A stretch of 29,795 nucleotides of DNA from a virus (taxonomy: Duplodnaviria > Caudoviricetes), in the IMG/VR virus record IMGVR_UViG_3300033516_000105, positions 1 to 29,795 of that record; one strand, written 5' to 3'. Positions within the stretch are counted from its first letter, which is position 1. Every line of letters starts with the position of its first letter. Made by a program: the position numbers and the translations under genes. The notes under the pieces were generated by a model that saw only the letters and a list, made by a program, of their open reading frames with translations, was not told where the DNA came from and did not search any database. Shown piece by piece: positions 3 through 25,680 of this stretch.

Positions 3-656
3 GCTTATTCTACTAATTTAACTTTTCTACCAGAATTACCAGAAAGTTTAAAAAAGTTGGTTTGTGTGAGGTCTTTGTTATCTTATTTACCAGAATTACC
101 AGAAAATTTAAAAGAATTATATTGTTATAATAATAAATTAAAATCTTTACCTAAATTACCAAAAAGATTAGAAGAATTAAAATGTGAAAATAATGATTTA
201 ACTTCTTTATCTGAATTACCAGAAAATTTAAAAGAATTATATTGTTATAATAATGAATTAGAATCTTTACCAGAATTACCAGAAAGTTTAACAAAATTAT
301 ATTGTAGTATTAATAATTTAACTTCTTTACCAAAATTACCAGAAAGTTTAATAACTTTATCTTGTAGTGCTAATAATTTAACTTCTTTACCAAAATTACC
401 AGAAAGTTTAAAATATTTATATTGTTATGATAATCCATTTGAGTATCCAATTCCACATAAATTCTATAATAATCAAGATAAAGAATGGTTAAAAAAATTT
501 AACCTTAAACTAAGTTCATATGAACATCAAAAGAAATTAATCGAAGAAAATGGTGTATATATAATGAAAAAATATGAAAATCATCCAGAATTAATAAATG
601 ATAAAATAAAAGAAGAAAATCCAACTTACTTTTTATCTGTTGATTATGGATTTTAA
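3..656 (+). CDS. Leucine-rich repeat protein (20-aa LPX/IpaH-YopM-type LRR), 5'-partial
   Basis: Frame is open from position 3 (AYSTNLTFLPELPESLKKLVC...), so the gene starts before the window. Repeats LxxLPxLPxxLxxLxCxxNx have a 60-nt period. C-terminus ...IKEENPTYFLSVDYGF. Confidence 0.9.
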   Translation, partial: AYSTNLTFLPELPESLKKLVCVRSLLSYLPELPENLKELYCYNNKLKSLPKLPKRLEELKCENNDLTSLSELPENLKELYCYNNELESLPELPESLTKLYCSINNLTSLPKLPESLITLSCSANNLTSLPKLPESLKYLYCYDNPFEYPIPHKFYNNQDKEWLKKFNLKLSSYEHQKKLIEENGVYIMKKYENHPELINDKIKEENPTYFLSVDYGF

Positions 657-670
657 AAATAAAAGATGAA

Positions 671-1252
671 ATGAAAAGATATTTAGAGTTTATTAAAGAG
701 AGTTCTATAGAAAAAGAGATTACTATTTATAGTGAAAAGGATTTTCATAAAATTAAAGAAGGAATTGAAAAAATTTATACTAGAGATAATGATTTAAAAT
801 CTCTACCTGAATTACCAGAAAATTTAAAAGAATTACATTGTTGGAATCTTGAATTGGAATTTCTACCAAAATTACCAAAAAATCTAAAAATATTAAATTG
901 TAGATCAAATAAATTAAAATTTCTACCAGAATTACCAGAGGATTTAATACAATTACATTGTTGGGATAATCAATTAACTTATTTACCAGAATTGCCAAAA
1001 AATTTAACATTTCTTGCTTGTTATGATAATCCATTAGAATATCCAATTCCACATAAATTCTATTATAAACAAGATAAAGATTGGTTAGAAGAATTAAATC
1101 TTAAATTAAGCACATATGAACATCAAAAGAAATTGATAACTGAACATGGTGTTTATATAATGAAAAAATTTGAAAATCATCCAGAATTAATAAATGATAA
1201 AATTAAAGAAGAAAATCCAACTTACTTTTTATCTGTTGAATATGGATTTTAA
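671..1252 (+). CDS. Leucine-rich repeat protein, tandem paralog of the upstream gene
   Basis: Same LRR consensus; last ~75 aa nearly identical to the upstream ORF; N-terminus MKRYLEFIKES. Confidence 0.9.
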   Translation: MKRYLEFIKESSIEKEITIYSEKDFHKIKEGIEKIYTRDNDLKSLPELPENLKELHCWNLELEFLPKLPKNLKILNCRSNKLKFLPELPEDLIQLHCWDNQLTYLPELPKNLTFLACYDNPLEYPIPHKFYYKQDKDWLEELNLKLSTYEHQKKLITEHGVYIMKKFENHPELINDKIKEENPTYFLSVEYGF

Positions 1253-18242: not shown

Positions 18243-19028
18243 ATGAAAAATATAAATATTTTATTTAAATTATTTAAGCATAATATTGAAAATATCAAAG
18301 AAATAATTCAAAAAATAATTAATAATATTGATGAAAATATTAAAATAACTGAGTATTTAGGTAGTGGTGTTATGGGTTATTCCTTTTCAACAAATTTAAA
18401 CACTGTTATAAAAATAACCACCGATGATTTCGAAGCAATAAATTCACAATACCTAATAAATAATAAATTGAAAAATTTTGCAAAATATTATTGGGTTTAT
18501 AAAATAAATATTTTAGATTTTATTGAAACTGATAATAATGAAATAATTGAAAATAAATTTATCTATATTTTAAATATGGAAAAATTAAAGATGTTAAACG
18601 AAACTGAAAAAGAAATTACTTGGTTATTAAATAAAAGATTTTTTGAATCTAAAAAAGATAAATATTTAGTTGGATTTTTTGTTAATGATTTTAAATATGA
18701 TGAGTTTGTTAAAATAAATGATTTAAACAAATTAAAAATATTATATGAACATATAAAAACAAATGATATTAATAAATCATATCATTTTGAATTATCAAAT
18801 AAAACTATTGGAAATTTTTCATTTAATAAAAAAATAATTAATAACATATCCTTTGATGAGTTGAAAAATATCTATGATATAATGTTAAAAATATATAAAG
18901 AAGCAAATGAAAATAATATGTTTATTATTGATTTACATTGTGGAAATTTAGGTTATAATGATTTTGGAATGGTATCCTTTGATGTTGGAGTTTATTCAAA
19001 ATTTGATATACAAATAGAAGAAAAATAA
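18243..19028 (+). CDS. Protein kinase-like (PKL-fold) protein
   Basis: Gly loop YLGSGVMG, VIK lysine, helix-C Glu (DDFEA), catalytic loop DLHCGN, metal-binding FDVG. Confidence 0.75.
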   Translation: MKNINILFKLFKHNIENIKEIIQKIINNIDENIKITEYLGSGVMGYSFSTNLNTVIKITTDDFEAINSQYLINNKLKNFAKYYWVYKINILDFIETDNNEIIENKFIYILNMEKLKMLNETEKEITWLLNKRFFESKKDKYLVGFFVNDFKYDEFVKINDLNKLKILYEHIKTNDINKSYHFELSNKTIGNFSFNKKIINNISFDELKNIYDIMLKIYKEANENNMFIIDLHCGNLGYNDFGMVSFDVGVYSKFDIQIEEK

Positions 19029-19055
19029 AAAAGGTGGAAAAATTTCCACCTTTTT
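19028..19055. terminator. Bidirectional intrinsic terminator between kinase and dnaK
   Basis: AAAAAGGTGGAAA-AA-TTTCCACCTTTTT between convergent genes. Confidence 0.9.
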
Positions 19056-19059
19056 ATTT

Positions 19060-20922
19060 TTATTTAACTTCATCAAAATTGACATCTTTAACTTCTTCTT
19101 TATTTTCAGTTTTTTGTTCTGAATTTGGTTGATATAAATTTTGTGATATTGTATGCCACTTTTCAGTTAATTCAGTGGTTAATTTATCAACATCCTCTAT
19201 ATTTTTAGAAGCATGTGCAACTTTTAATTTAGAAACAACATCAGACAATTCAGTTTTTTGTGAATCTGATAATTTATCACCAAATTCTTTAATTTGTTTT
19301 TCAGTGCTAAAAATTAATGAATCAGCAGAATTCAATTTATCAATTAATTCTTTTTCCTTTTTGTCGTTTTGTTCATTTTGTTTTGCTTCTTCTTTCATTT
19401 TTTCAATTTCATCCTTATTCAAATTTGATGAACCTTCTACTCTAATTGAATTAACTTTTCCAGTTGCTTTATCTTTTGCAGAAACTTCTAAAATTCCATT
19501 AGCATTTATTGAAAATTGAATTTCAATTTGTGGAACACCTCTTGGTGATGACATAATACCTTCCAAATGAAACCTACCCAAAGTTTTATTATCTTTTACC
19601 ATTGGTCTTTCACCTTGTAATATATGAACTTCCACCGAAGGTTGATTATCAGAAGCTGTTGAAAATGTTTCTGCTTTTGATACTGGAATAGTTGTATTTG
19701 ATTCAATCATTCTTGTCATAACTCCACCCATAGTTTCAATTCCAATTGTTAATGGAATGACATCCAATAACAAAATATCATTAATTGATCCAGTCAAAAC
19801 AGCACCTTGAATTGCAGCACCAACAGCTACAGATTCATCTGGATTTATTGATTTGTTTGGTTCTTTTCCAAATATTTTCTTTACAGTTTCTTGTACAATT
19901 GGAATTCTTGTTGATCCACCAACCAATAATACTTCATCAATTTCACTAACATCAATACCAGAATCCTTAATTGCCTTTTCACAAGGTGTAATTAATTTTT
20001 GAATATATTTATCAATTAATTTTTCAAATTGACTTCTTGTTAATGATTTATTAAAATGTGTTGGAATATTATCAACCACAGTAATATATGGTAAATTAAT
20101 ATCACTACTACTTGAACTCGATAATTCAATCTTAGTTTTTTCTGCTGCTTCTCTCAATCTTTGCAATGCAAGTTGATCTTTTTTCAAATCAATTGTAGGA
20201 TAATCTTTCTTAAATTCTTCTACAATCCAATTAATTATTTCCTCATCAAATACATCACCACCTAAGAAAATATCACCATTTGTTGATTTTACTTCATATA
20301 CACCATCACCAATTTCTAATATTGAAATATCAAATGTAGAACCACCAAGGTCAAATACTGCAATTTTTTTATCACCTTTCTTATCATCACCATATGCAAG
20401 TGATGCTGCAGTAGGTTCATTTATAATTCTAAGAACTTCTAATCCAGCAATTTCACCAGCTTCCTTTGTTGCAGTTCTTTCTGAATCATTGAAATATGCT
20501 GGAACTGTAATGACTGCTTTTTTAATAGATTTTCCTAAATAATCTTCTGCTGTCTTTTTCATCTTCTGAAGTATCATAGCAGAAATTTCTTGTGGTGTAT
20601 ATTTCTTTCCTTCTATTTCAACCAAACAATTTCCACCATCTCCTTTTACCACCTTATATGGCAATGTAGATAAATGATTCTTATCCAAATCATCATACTT
20701 TTTTCCAATTAATCTTTTAATTGAAAAAACTGTATTTGGATTCACTGACATTTGTCTTTTTGCTGGATCACCAATTTTTCTATCATTATCCTTAAAAGAT
20801 ACAATAGAAGGTGTTGTTCTTTTACCCTCTGAATTGATAATCACAACAGGCTGACCACCCTCAATAACACATACACAGGAATTAGTACTTCCCAAATCTA
20901 TTCCAATAATTGTCTCACTCAT
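19060..20922 (-). CDS. dnaK: Hsp70 chaperone DnaK
   Basis: [47 protein letters not shown] linker, [15 protein letters not shown]. Confidence 0.97.
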
Positions 20923-23052: not shown

Positions 23053-23060
23053 TATCTTTG
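23053..23060 (+). promoter_or_regulatory. Bacteroidota-type -7 promoter element
   Basis: TATCTTTG 14 nt upstream of ATG 23075. Confidence 0.6.
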
Positions 23061-23074
23061 TGAAAAATATTACA

Positions 23075-23740
23075 ATGGAAAAAATAAAATTTATTAGATA
23101 TGGTGGTTTAAATTCATATAAGCAAGAACATAGAAAACCAGATAATGATAAAAATTTTCACAACCCTCCAAGAAAATCTGGGTTTTATGCATTTCCACAT
23201 AAATATGTTGATTTTTTCTTATTAACTGCAACAAATTATCCATCTGATATATCTGGAAAAACTATATGGTTAAAAGATGATAATGGTAATATAGTAAAAG
23301 AAAATATAAAATACGAATATGATAATAAATCTAAAAGAGATATTATAGTAGTTTCTGAACATGTTAATGAATTGTTGAAAAAGAAAAACATTGAATTGAA
23401 ATATCTAAGATCATTCTACAATGAAAAAGAAGATGTATATTATTTAGCATATTACAAAAAACCAAAAATATTTGAATATTATGGAAATATTTGGCATCAT
23501 TTAGGTGAAAATTGTGAAAATTTTGAAATTATAGATAGAACAAATTTTTGGTATCTAACATCATATGATAGTTATTTAAAAGCATTCAATAAGAATAGAC
23601 ATCAATTATTAAAAGAAATTCATAAAGATCATTTCAATGAAAGTAAAGAATTATTAAATAGAATTGATCCATATAGAAAATCACCATCATATACATATGC
23701 AATTGATGATTTGGAAGTATTCATTGAAAAATTAAAATGA
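23075..23740 (+). CDS. Hypothetical protein
   Basis: MEKIKFIRYGG...FHNPPRKSGFYAFP...IWHHL...DDLEVFIEK; start moved to ATG 23075 because the track GTG overlaps the promoter element. Confidence 0.7.
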   Translation: MEKIKFIRYGGLNSYKQEHRKPDNDKNFHNPPRKSGFYAFPHKYVDFFLLTATNYPSDISGKTIWLKDDNGNIVKENIKYEYDNKSKRDIIVVSEHVNELLKKKNIELKYLRSFYNEKEDVYYLAYYKKPKIFEYYGNIWHHLGENCENFEIIDRTNFWYLTSYDSYLKAFNKNRHQLLKEIHKDHFNESKELLNRIDPYRKSPSYTYAIDDLEVFIEKLK

Positions 23741-23851: not shown

Positions 23852-23898
23852 TTTTTAATTTTTTTAATTATATATTAAAATTATTATTTAAAAATTAG

Positions 23899-23978
23899 AG
23901 TTGGCTATTGGATTCGAACCAATGTGTTTAATTAACAATTTTGCAGATTGTTCCCTTCAACCACTCGGGCAAGCCAAC
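23899..23978 (-). tRNA. tRNA-Cys(GCA)
   Basis: Acceptor GTTGGCT/AGCCAAC, anticodon arm ACAAT-CTGCAAA-ATTGT, U73, enlarged variable loop; no encoded CCA. Confidence 0.9.
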
Positions 23979-23985
23979 ATATTTG

Positions 23986-24069
23986 TACTGTGTGCGGGGT
24001 TCGAACCCGACGAACTCTTTCGAGACCAATTTGAAGGATTGGCTACTTTAACCACTTGTATAACACAGC
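23986..24069 (-). tRNA. Atypical class II tRNA, anticodon loop CCUUCAA (UUC, Glu-decoding, by position)
   Basis: Acceptor GCTGTGT/ACACAGT + A73, D arm TAC-AAGTGGTTAAA-GTA, CCAAT-CCTTCAA-ATTGG, variable arm CTC-GAAA-GAG, T arm G(T)CGGG-TTCGAAC-CCCGC. Confidence 0.7.
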
Positions 24070-24074
24070 ATTAG

Positions 24075-24148
24075 TAGTATTGAATGGATTTGAACCATTG
24101 ACCTTCTCGGTATCAGCGAGACATTCTAACCAACTGAACTACAATACT
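24075..24148 (-). tRNA. tRNA-Ile(GAU)
   Basis: AGTATTG/CAATACT acceptor; TCTCG-CTGATAC-CGAGA. Confidence 0.93.
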
Positions 24149-24153
24149 ATAAG

Positions 24154-24226
24154 CACCACCTATGGGATTCGAACCCATGTACTCCTCCGTGACAGGGAGG
24201 CATGATAACCACTTCACCAAGGTGGT
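24154..24226 (-). tRNA. tRNA-Asp(GUC)
   Basis: ACCACCT/AGGTGGT acceptor, G73; CCTCC-CTGTCAC-GGAGG. Confidence 0.95.
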
Positions 24227-24236
24227 ATTTAATTTG

Positions 24237-24310
24237 TCGGGATGAGACGACTTGAACGTCCGACCTCCTGCTCCCAAAGCAGGCATTCTAACCAACTGAA
24301 CTACATCCCG
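24237..24310 (-). tRNA. tRNA-Pro(UGG)
   Basis: CGGGATG/CATCCCG acceptor; CCTGC-TTTGGGA-GCAGG. Confidence 0.95.
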
Positions 24311-24317
24311 TTTTTAG

Positions 24318-24403
24318 TAGCTGGAACAAGAATCGAACTTGCACAAACATTTCTGTTCATTGGATTTTAAGTCCAACGTGTCTACCAATTCCACCATCCA
24401 GCC
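24318..24403 (-). tRNA. tRNA-Leu(UAA)
   Basis: GGCTGGA/TCCAGCT, A73; TTGGA-CTTAAAA-TCCAA; long variable arm. Confidence 0.95.
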
Positions 24404-24411
24404 ATTAAAAG

Positions 24412-24484
24412 CGTCCAAAATAGGTCACGATCCTATAACCTTCTGATTAACAGTCAGATGCTCTACCAATTGAGCTACTTGGAC
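24412..24484 (-). tRNA. tRNA-Asn(GUU)
   Basis: GTCCAAG/TTTGGAC, G73; TCTGA-CTGTTAA-TCAGA; non-canonical T loop ATCGTGA. Confidence 0.9.
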
Positions 24485-24492
24485 AATATTTG

Positions 24493-24577
24493 TAGATTTG
24501 ATGAGATTCGAACTCACATGAGTATTACCTCAATAGTTTCTAAAACTATCGTGTCTCTCCATTTCCACCACAAATCT
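24493..24577 (-). tRNA. tRNA-Leu(UAG)
   Basis: AGATTTG/CAAATCT, A73; ATAGT-TTTAGAA-ACTAT; long variable arm. Confidence 0.92.
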
Positions 24578-24594
24578 ATAAAAGAACTATAATT

Positions 24595-24626
24595 AAAAAA
24601 TCCAGTTAATTTTTCAACTAACTGGA
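24595..24626 (-). terminator. Intrinsic terminator (attenuator) immediately upstream of the tRNA array
   Basis: TCCAGTTAGTT-GAAA-AATTAACTGGA-TTTTTT: 11-bp stem with one G:U, GNRA loop, U6 tail ending 17 nt before the first tRNA. Confidence 0.88.
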
Positions 24627-24666
24627 TTTTTAATATTTTAAATTTTTAAAAAAATCAAGTTAGTTG
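24615..24666 (-). promoter_or_regulatory. Antiterminator helix of the tRNA-array attenuator
   Basis: CAACTAACTTGATTTTT (24666-24650) pairs 16/17 with AAAAATCCAGTTAGTTG (24631-24615), which includes the whole 5' arm of the terminator. Confidence 0.82.
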
Positions 24667-24728
24667 GGTTGAGTTTTTGGCTCATCCAATAGATTGTTAC
24701 AAATGTTTAAGTTTAATAAATTTTTCAT
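24660..24728 (-). CDS. Putative attenuator leader peptide MKNLLNLNICNNLLDEPKTQPN (22 aa), not in the ORF track
   Basis: ATG AAA AAT TTA TTA AAC TTA AAC ATT TGT AAC AAT CTA TTG GAT GAG CCA AAA ACT CAA CCC AAC TAA; the stop codon lies inside the antiterminator strand. Confidence 0.8.
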   Translation of the reverse strand: MKNLLNLNICNNLLDEPKTQPN

Positions 24729-24757
24729 AATCTATTTTTTGTTTTTATTTGATATTT

Positions 24758-24765
24758 CAAAATTA
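24758..24765 (-). promoter_or_regulatory. Bacteroidota-type -7 promoter element for the leader + tRNA array
   Basis: TAATTTTG 29 nt upstream of the leader ATG; an AATATATA motif also lies near 24798-24805. Confidence 0.55.
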
Positions 24766-24955
24766 ATGTAAAGTTTTTAAATAAAAAAATTTTATTGTAT
24801 ATATTTTCAAAAAATATTCATTTTTTATCACTTTTATGGTCAAATATTGTTATTTGTTTGATTATTAAAACTTTAACTATTTTTGACATTTTAAAAATAT
24901 TTTAATTGGAACTTTTTATATTTATATATATAATTTAAAAATACTATAATAATCA

Positions 24956-25680
24956 ATGGCAACATTCACAATAACTGGAAATACTAATGTAGATAATATA
25001 AATGGTGGAGTTTGGGTAAATGGAGATTTATTGGTAATAAACAATGGATCTATTGTTACAGTAAATACAAATCAAACTAAATTTTAGACTACTGTTACAA
25101 TAAACAATGGAAAATTATTAATAGAAAACAATTCAGCAACATCAGCTATAAGATTTTTAACTGGTAGGTTGGCTGGAACATCTGCAGCAAATCAAATTAA
25201 ACCAACATCTGGATTAGCAACAATTGAAATTAATGGTGAATGGATTAATATAAATACTGGAACATCACAACAACAAATAATTCAAATTCCATACACAGAT
25301 TTCATTCCTTGTATTTGGGTAGAAACATATTCTGGTTCGAGTGATTATGAAATATGGTTTAATTCAAATGCTACATATGGACAATCACTAACATATTATA
25401 GAGAGAACTATGAATCAACTGGTTTTGATTCTGTTAGAGGTAGATATTTTATGCAAGTAGAAAAACCTGAACCATATCCAATAAACAGTGGATTATCTTA
25501 TCATTTTACAAATAATATAATACTTGGATTATCTGGTGCAACAGTTCCTATTGGTGCAAATATTAGAATTCCTAATATTATTAACGGATGATACAAAATG
25601 TAATTATTTTAGCACTACTGCACAATTAGCAACAAGAACTTGGAATTGTAATATTGATTTAACTTCTGGAGGTATATTAA
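24956..25680 (+). pseudogene. Disrupted, truncated beta-rich (tail-fibre/adhesin-like) gene
   Basis: ATG 24956 (MATFTITGNTNVD...) is in frame with the track ORF 25169-25591 but interrupted by TAG at 25085-25087. An apparent frameshift near 25583 continues ...TDDTKCNYFSTTAQLATRTWNCNIDLTSGG. Confidence 0.65.

Follow-up and report, generated by a model that had tools for sequence, protein, structure and literature searches.

A probable leader-peptide attenuator in front of a phage tRNA operon, with differently spelled counterparts in related megaphages

The tRNA operon and its genome

Why phages carry tRNA genes is a long-standing question, with codon bias, the replacement of degraded host tRNA and the countering of tRNA-cutting defences among the answers. 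The locus described here raises the further question of whether a phage may adjust the supply of its tRNAs to the speed at which the cognate codons are decoded. In the window (the whole 29.8-kb virus record that was analysed) eight tRNA genes are preceded by a short ORF, and an intrinsic terminator lies between the two (Table 1). On the sequence evidence we hold it likely, with a probability of roughly 0.88, that transcription of this phage tRNA operon is gated by an attenuator which responds to the ribosome. It would represent a known mechanism acting on an apparently undescribed target, namely tRNA genes. Most tRNA blocks of related megaphages are preceded by an equivalent arrangement in which the leader is spelled differently.

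The window encodes a T4-like capsid, a head protease, a portal and a DNA polymerase, and also carries genes for DnaK, Hsp20 and DnaJ. Its major capsid protein shares 61% identity with that of LR756501 (a 735,411-bp genome) and 50-52% with those of three genomes of 635-642 kb, and by capsid identity the window probably comes from a T4-like megaphage akin to the Mahaphage genomes of 635-735 kb. Genomes above 634 kb are placed in the Mahaphage clade, with Bacteroidetes as the predicted hosts, in passages of PMC7162821. Most genes of the window lack a Shine-Dalgarno sequence when inspected by eye. A DUF4295 gene and a PorP/SprF gene of type IX secretion, both presumably typical of Bacteroidota, are found in related tRNA blocks, and we infer a Bacteroidota host for the window phage. 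A search of viral contigs gave no homologue of the neighbouring gene (23060-23740) and no match to the back-translated leader pattern or to the Asn-Leu-Pro tRNA pattern, and a blastn comparison of the locus with GenBank phages gave matches at the tRNA level only.

Elsewhere in the window, a 211-codon frame at 24956-25591 (+) is broken by a single TAG at 25085-25087. A related contig from run X2 has a sense codon at this position, so that the TAG is explained by a recent nonsense mutation or by faulty assembly rather than by recoding. Two tandem leucine-rich-repeat genes at 57-1252 (+) have a C-terminal tail in common. Weak Rfam matches to STnc40, below the gathering score, were found at a bidirectional terminator between convergent genes (18987-19095) and are likely spurious.

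The operon comprises, in order, the genes for Leu-UAG, Asn-GUU, Leu-UAA, Pro-UGG, Asp-GUC, Ile-GAU, Glu-UUC and Cys-GCA, without any gene that makes or charges the sensed amino acids. Rfam matches seven of the eight tRNAs, the exception being the UUC gene. A long-arm homologue of this gene occurs in locus L229 and a Glu-UUC gene with C33 in L100; more generally, relatives contain Glu, Cys, Lys and Gly tRNAs with comparable long arms (L229, L100, L228, L093). The idea that the UUC gene is a shifted UCA suppressor was rejected, since its long-arm homologue sits in a Glu/Tyr block. The leaders could provide an independent check on the decoding by such odd phage tRNAs, of which the UUC gene of the window is an example.

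Table 1. Features of the window and of related loci (positions without a locus prefix refer to the window)
Feature	Position	Strand	Remark
AATATATA motif, candidate phage-type promoter element	24798..24805	-	putative
TAnnTTTG, candidate Bacteroidota housekeeping promoter element	24758..24765	-	putative
Leader ORF, 22 codons	24660..24728	-	ATG at 24728; translation agrees with the 22 residues of the initial annotation
Sensor run, leader codons 3-17	24722-24678	-	all read by downstream tRNAs
Weak hairpin in ORF 3' end	24664..24689	-	possible pause or 1:2 helix; -5.3 kcal/mol, z -0.7
Antiterminator 5' strand	24650..24666	-	holds leader stop codon (24662-24660)
Intrinsic terminator	24595..24631	-	16-bp stem, GAAA loop 24615-24612, U6 tail 24600-24595
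boxA-like element	24579..24587	-	after terminator; putative function
tRNA operon, eight genes	23898..24577	-	ARAGORN
Glu-UUC gene	23985-24069	-	long variable arm (unusual for class), C33
Cys-GCA gene	23898-23978	-	long variable arm (unusual for class)
HisRS-like gene in His block	L098:9633-10262		Pfam
Class I W/Y-type synthetase in Trp block	L217:4935-5648		Pfam
AlaRS + class II core in Gly/Ala block	L222:6673-8305		Pfam
Class II core + anticodon-binding domain in Thr block	L234:5216-6376		Pfam
Tandem attenuator loci	L084 (G004 33-45 kb), L085, L102, L216, L221, L222, L224, L228, L229, L231, L234
A34-anticodon loci	L092, L093, L085, L099, L223, L224, L230		ARAGORN

Codon content and folding of the leader

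The initial annotation had placed a 22-codon ORF upstream of the tRNA array and held that 15 of its codons in a row are matched by the array, with every tRNA represented. The ORF is indeed present there, and the codon-anticodon check as well as chance tests bear out the run. Codons 3-17 use all eight tRNAs. Stop-free nucleotide shuffles of the ORF never reached a run of 15 (0/300,000; maximum 13) and neither did random sets of eight anticodons (0/1,000,000; maximum 14). At the codon usage of the window genes (0.417 per codon) a given run of this length has p=2e-6, and the longest matched run among the other 423 of the window's 424 short ATG ORFs is 7. The 15-codon run of the leader is far above chance. 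The ORF has no Shine-Dalgarno sequence and carries an A at -3, as do most genes of the window.

In a close strain, represented by one contig of run X2 at a depth of 7.9, the leader frame stays open. Codon 5 is changed to Ser in this strain, which shortens the run and indicates that the exact run of 15 is not fixed; a further two changes are synonymous, and another lies in the antiterminator tail. Over ~1,130 nt the strain differs from the window by at least 27 substitutions and at least 4 gaps, and in this comparison the conservation of the leader locus is not above that of the flanking DNA. A function for the leader peptide itself was rejected, because the peptide has no Pfam match and the window leader is at most ~45% alike to other leaders at the DNA level.

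A TAnnTTTG element, which we take to be the Bacteroidota housekeeping promoter consensus, had been proposed as the promoter. The motif is present upstream of the leader, and it precedes 23 of 46 leaders as compared to 64 of 427 long ORFs (15%), but its 63 copies in the window make the promoter call weak by itself, and a second motif is more regular: a AATATATA-like element lies at most 110 nt upstream of 37 of the 46 leaders, against 176 of the 427 long ORFs (41%) in the discovery loci (see below). On the other side of the terminator lies a boxA-like motif, presumably an rRNA-type antitermination signal. With one mismatch allowed, such a motif follows the terminator at a distance of at most 120 nt in 16/46 units, as compared to 1/43 control terminators and 0/46 upstream regions.

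The terminator (-17.8 kcal/mol, z -6.7) has only 3 G-C pairs in its stem, and the consensus scan did not detect it. The antiterminator strand (24666-24650) pairs at 16 of 17 positions with the terminator 5' arm (24631-24615), and this duplex has z=-5.7 relative to its own upstream region shuffled 60 times. Both elements, as well as the GAAA loop and the U6 tail, had been described initially and lie where they were then located, beyond what chance would give. Folding also recovered the mutually exclusive helices that had been proposed: the fragment ending at the terminator 5' arm folds to -18.4 kcal/mol, near-equal to the terminator fragment. A further hairpin was said to overlap the antiterminator strand. 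It does so, but it is weak, shares just 3 nt with that strand and coexists with the antiterminator in a shortened form. In the folding models it fails to block the antiterminator, so that, in contrast to trp, read-through is predicted when the window leader is not translated; the 1:2 hairpin of the window appears too weak for shut-off without translation. Rfam matched tRNAs only at the window locus, and no leader family here or in 10 related loci.

The effect of ribosome position was modelled by masked folding, in which a ribosome mask is combined with the withholding of 2-4 nt of the terminator 3' arm, as if these were held by the polymerase. The modelled terminator fraction of the window is 0.0 for A-site codons 7-17, climbs over codons 18-21 and reaches 0.8-0.9 at codons 22-23; at codon 17, the last of the matched run, it is still 0.0. 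A switch of this kind was obtained in 15 of 21 units with 2-4 nt withheld, and in 9 of 21 with nothing withheld. When no ribosome is present, the fraction in the window is 0.0 with 2-4 nt withheld and 0.73 with none withheld, and it lies above 0.5 in 9 of the 21 units. If the whole stem is left free and folding is taken to full equilibrium, the terminator prevails in the window at every ribosome position (0.91-1.0), and the modelled switch would consequently depend on the order of folding, in that the antiterminator must form first.

We infer that the leader is translated and that the switch takes the following course. A host ribosome would follow RNA polymerase along the leader and, if codons 3-17 are decoded fast, would arrive at codons ~19-23 and cover the antiterminator strand, upon which the terminator would fold and transcription would end before the tRNAs. 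If any cognate tRNA were scarce, cut or uncharged, the ribosome would lag within the matched run, the antiterminator could pair with the emerging terminator arm and the polymerase would continue, with the boxA-like site probably assisting read-through. The new tRNAs would relieve the stall, which would close a negative-feedback loop, and with one sensor per block the phage could top up whichever tRNA class is limiting. Such a sensor implies on-demand tRNA synthesis when particular codons decode slowly. Each leader would be a potential reporter of the tRNAs that become limiting in the infected cell, and attenuation would be extended from enzymes to the tRNA pool, as a feedback loop.

Leaders and tRNA blocks in related megaphages

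Relatives of the window were gathered by capsid similarity. Transfer RNAs were located in 18 of 68 records, and 38 stretches were analysed. In this discovery set 25 terminators are followed by a same-strand tRNA within 700 nt, and for 22 of them an ORF of 15-48 codons ends 10-45 nt upstream. The antiterminator duplex reaches -9.7 kcal/mol or below in 20 of these 22, as compared to -2.3 to -9.2 for 41 other terminators. The window unit, whose terminator falls below the detector, was added by hand to the discovery statistics (n=23), and two failures were kept in. These are the loose-rule candidates L088:6022 and L101:6780, which were rejected as having neither an antiterminator nor a codon match and were left out of the within-type and later statistics. 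The core codons of the leaders match their own block at 0.74 and other blocks at 0.26 (0/100,000 permutations; n=23), and past the antiterminator start the values are 0.255 and 0.261, respectively. Since the blocks fall into related types, the permutation was repeated within types (21 units), giving 0.76 for the own block versus 0.64 for permuted blocks (0/100,000).

The second set consisted of four complete GenBank megaphages and Lak-C1 (5 genomes, 28 stretches). Its terminator filter was looser, with the G-C pairs relaxed from at least 4 to at least 3 and the energy from -10 to -9, and it is a separate sample rather than an identical-rule replicate. A leader accompanies 27 of its 28 terminators and 25 of these pass the duplex cut-off; two leaders that match by eye were left out, their duplex being below the cut-off. 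Among the controls of this set, 7 of 36 terminators have a duplex of -9.4 or below. The core match is 0.62 for the own block versus 0.18 for others (0/50,000), and 0.23 versus 0.18 in the downstream part (2,088/50,000), permutation counts which, like those of the discovery set, overstate independence because the units are related by descent.

Together with the window, the 45 further units (from 16 records) make a pool of 46 units from 17 records. Leader codons covary with the array anticodons across these phages, as the initial annotation had anticipated, and 198 of 207 block amino acids occur in the block's own leader, versus 46% across leaders. Counted in codons relative to the antiterminator start, the match is 0.80-0.91 at positions -9 to -4 and 0.12-0.37 between -2 and +4. 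The gap that had been noticed between the matched run and the antiterminator thus recurs in the positional profile of the pool, and the spacing from peak to loss corresponds, on this profile, to one ribosome footprint, as ribosome-mediated attenuation predicts. The stop codon lies 17-40 nt from the terminator, and the mean duplex energy is -13.0 kcal/mol for own pairs versus -8.0 kcal/mol for cross pairs, with z<-2 in 36 of the 46 units. Leaders over-use G/C-ending synonymous codons (135 of 497, with 63.5 expected); GAG, CTA and AAC are examples of over-used G/C-ending or rare synonyms in the window. Such rare codons may raise the sensitivity or serve the RNA structure.

Individual loci illustrate how closely the spelling follows the block. 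In L087 a Pro/Thr/Gly/Arg/Val/Ala block without Gln has a leader with Val and no Gln, whereas the equivalent block of L091, with Gln and without Val, has a leader with Gln and no Val. The Ser/His/Phe/Trp/Lys blocks of L090 and L101 include Ile and Val tRNAs, and Ile and Val are found inside the sensor; the Gln-Asp-Pro block of L191 has a Q/P/D leader. In the second set, Gln-only blocks are preceded by poly-Gln leaders, a His/Phe block by a leader with an FWHFHF stretch, and the His-Pro-Arg-Ser-Cys-Met block of Lak-C1 by a leader built of just those residues. Judged from these sequences, the leaders track single tRNAs that move between blocks. Runs of tRNA genes without a leader also exist (in L088, and lone CUA-anticodon and Met tRNAs). 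Of 20 tRNA loci taken from a Bacteroidetes MAG 17 were usable, and none of these is preceded by the layout, which is also absent from phages PAU, pT24 and phiKZ and is therefore not generic to tRNA genes; PTm1 and MA9V-1, cultured distant relatives, gave no tRNA matches.

These comparisons bear on two simpler explanations. The terminator might merely end upstream transcription, with the tRNAs served by a promoter of their own and with the ORF and the pairing resulting from AT-rich chance or from an old terminator duplication. The antiterminator strand does resemble the terminator 3' arm, the locus region is 85% A+T and all leaders open with an N/I/L/T/K-rich stretch, in line with such an origin. 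We nevertheless consider it extremely improbable, given that merely 18 nt separate the terminator from the first tRNA, that leaders of blocks without Asn, Leu or Ile fit the window set at just 0.27 (codons 3-9), that codons and anticodons covary in the 45 other units, and that the MAG loci and the three other phages did not yield the layout. The leader might, alternatively, sense only a general slow-down of translation or a loss of coupling, as a timer or stress switch in which the codon content is incidental. This would agree with the read-through predicted for the window leader without a ribosome, by which an untranslated leader would also open the operon. It is very unlikely, however, in view of a codon content that follows each block (Gln-only, His/Phe, Arg/Ser) and of a match that is confined to the stretch upstream of the antiterminator. 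The arrangement is real and clade-wide, and it is very probably a functional attenuator.

The cause that is sensed by the attenuator, destruction of the tRNA or poor charging, is not separated by the sequence. A stalled ribosome cannot tell a missing from an uncharged tRNA, and the signal is consequently taken as slow decoding of the cognate codons. The same switch may have evolved mainly as a sensor of amino-acid starvation (uncharged tRNA), as in synthetase attenuators, and the blocks would then raise the charging capacity (tRNA and synthetase) in slow-growing hosts. A Pfam scan that covered 35 of 122 in-block ORFs identified cognate synthetase genes inside four matching blocks (L098, L217, L222, L234); these genes are short (209-386 aa), several look like the catalytic core only, and they point partly to control of charging. 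The match at the isoacceptor level depends on the wobble rule: it is significant with strict wobble (99/128, 80.8 expected) and not with superwobble (17/21, 14.0 expected). More tRNA, however, cannot by our reasoning cure a lack of amino acids, and the in-block ORFs scanned (35 of 122) included none recognisable as a gene for amino-acid biosynthesis. The window block, with tRNAs alone, and the RNA ligase gene in the block of L100 fit a replacement of lost tRNA. We regard starvation sensing as a possible main role, with the odds somewhat against it. Tentatively, and at odds only a little short of even, we suggest that these megaphages keep watch on host tRNA-cutting defences through a genome-wide circuit partitioned by codon, in which the leaders report the destroyed class and release the matching block. 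If this is true, several short leaders jointly cover most of the genetic code, the replacement block sometimes includes a synthetase or an RNA ligase, and the phage obtains an inducible, target-reading counter-defence from ribosome speed alone.

Known systems and minor features of the blocks

The E. coli leaders thrL and ilvL are multivalent leader-peptide attenuators, and trpL, hisL and pheL share their layout. The assignment of the window to this trp/his/ilv/thr type agrees with sequence and folding as regards the ORF, the antiterminator, the terminator and the position of the sensor. Like thrL and ilvL, the phage leader is a short ORF rich in sensed codons, by which several amino acids would be sensed together; the antiterminator strand would be covered by a ribosome near the stop, the terminator is intrinsic and rare synonymous codons are over-used. 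Unlike them, it is phage-borne and would control tRNA genes instead of biosynthetic enzymes, and phage leaders would sense up to ~10 amino acids each. The pheM-pheST system of E. coli is a synthetase attenuator. Here too cognate codons would attenuate genes of translation supply, and some phage blocks include cognate synthetase genes; the main phage product, however, is the tRNA itself, so that feedback would act directly on the tRNA level.

A T-box reportedly precedes tRNA-Asn genes in Clostridium acetobutylicum. The T-box resembles the phage leader in that antitermination responds to the state of the tRNA and, in the Clostridium case, controls tRNA genes. According to passages of PMC2494555 and PMC4574755, it works by direct binding of uncharged tRNA and involves no ribosome; unlike the sensor proposed for the phage, it cannot sense an absent tRNA. 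A T-box identity was rejected, as the Rfam T-box model had no match in the window (E<=1) nor in 10 related loci (gathering score). In Anabaena, a cryptic trn operon of 26 tRNAs is repressed by TrcR and induced by translational stress, as stated in parts of PMC10272220 and PMC8421152. It is likewise a spare tRNA array that is turned on under translational stress, but its control by a DNA-binding repressor is global rather than codon-specific. According to the abstract of PMC11464382, the tRNA-Lys of phage T5 rescues infection from PARIS, and host nucleases cut tRNA, which supplies a likely selective motive; the abstract gives no regulation of phage tRNA genes.

A full-text literature search, with paper supplements and most subscription journals outside its scope, gave no leader-peptide control of tRNA genes. 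Attenuation, a leader or a terminator is mentioned neither in the text of PMC8421152 nor in the main text of the Lak paper, and a search of the huge-phage paper for attenuation gave no mention. In passages of the phage G paper the term 'antiterminator' denotes a protein.

Tandem attenuators, with a second leader and terminator inside the same-strand tRNA run, occur in several loci (Table 1), and the first leader of L084 also holds residues of the second block. At L223:6454 (+) and L231:7806 (+) a terminator is accompanied by a short ORF and, upstream, by a strong duplex, but no tRNA follows in the stretch analysed; these units may gate other genes. Many blocks contain genes for HNH and other endonucleases between the tRNA genes (L084, L087, L090, L100 and others), with none in the window block. 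Genes for a DUF4295 small protein (L097:3801-3950), ribosomal protein L7/L12 (L216:4960-5331) and an RNA ligase (L100:10868-12145) are located between a leader and its tRNAs or in the same-strand run. Single or paired tRNAs with a CUA anticodon, reading amber, stand apart from the leader-gated blocks in L085, L086, L098, L199, L200 and L220. Finally, anticodons with A34, which are rare in bacteria, were called by ARAGORN for Gly-ACC, Val-AAC, Thr-AGU, Ser-ACU, Pro-AGG and Leu-AAG.
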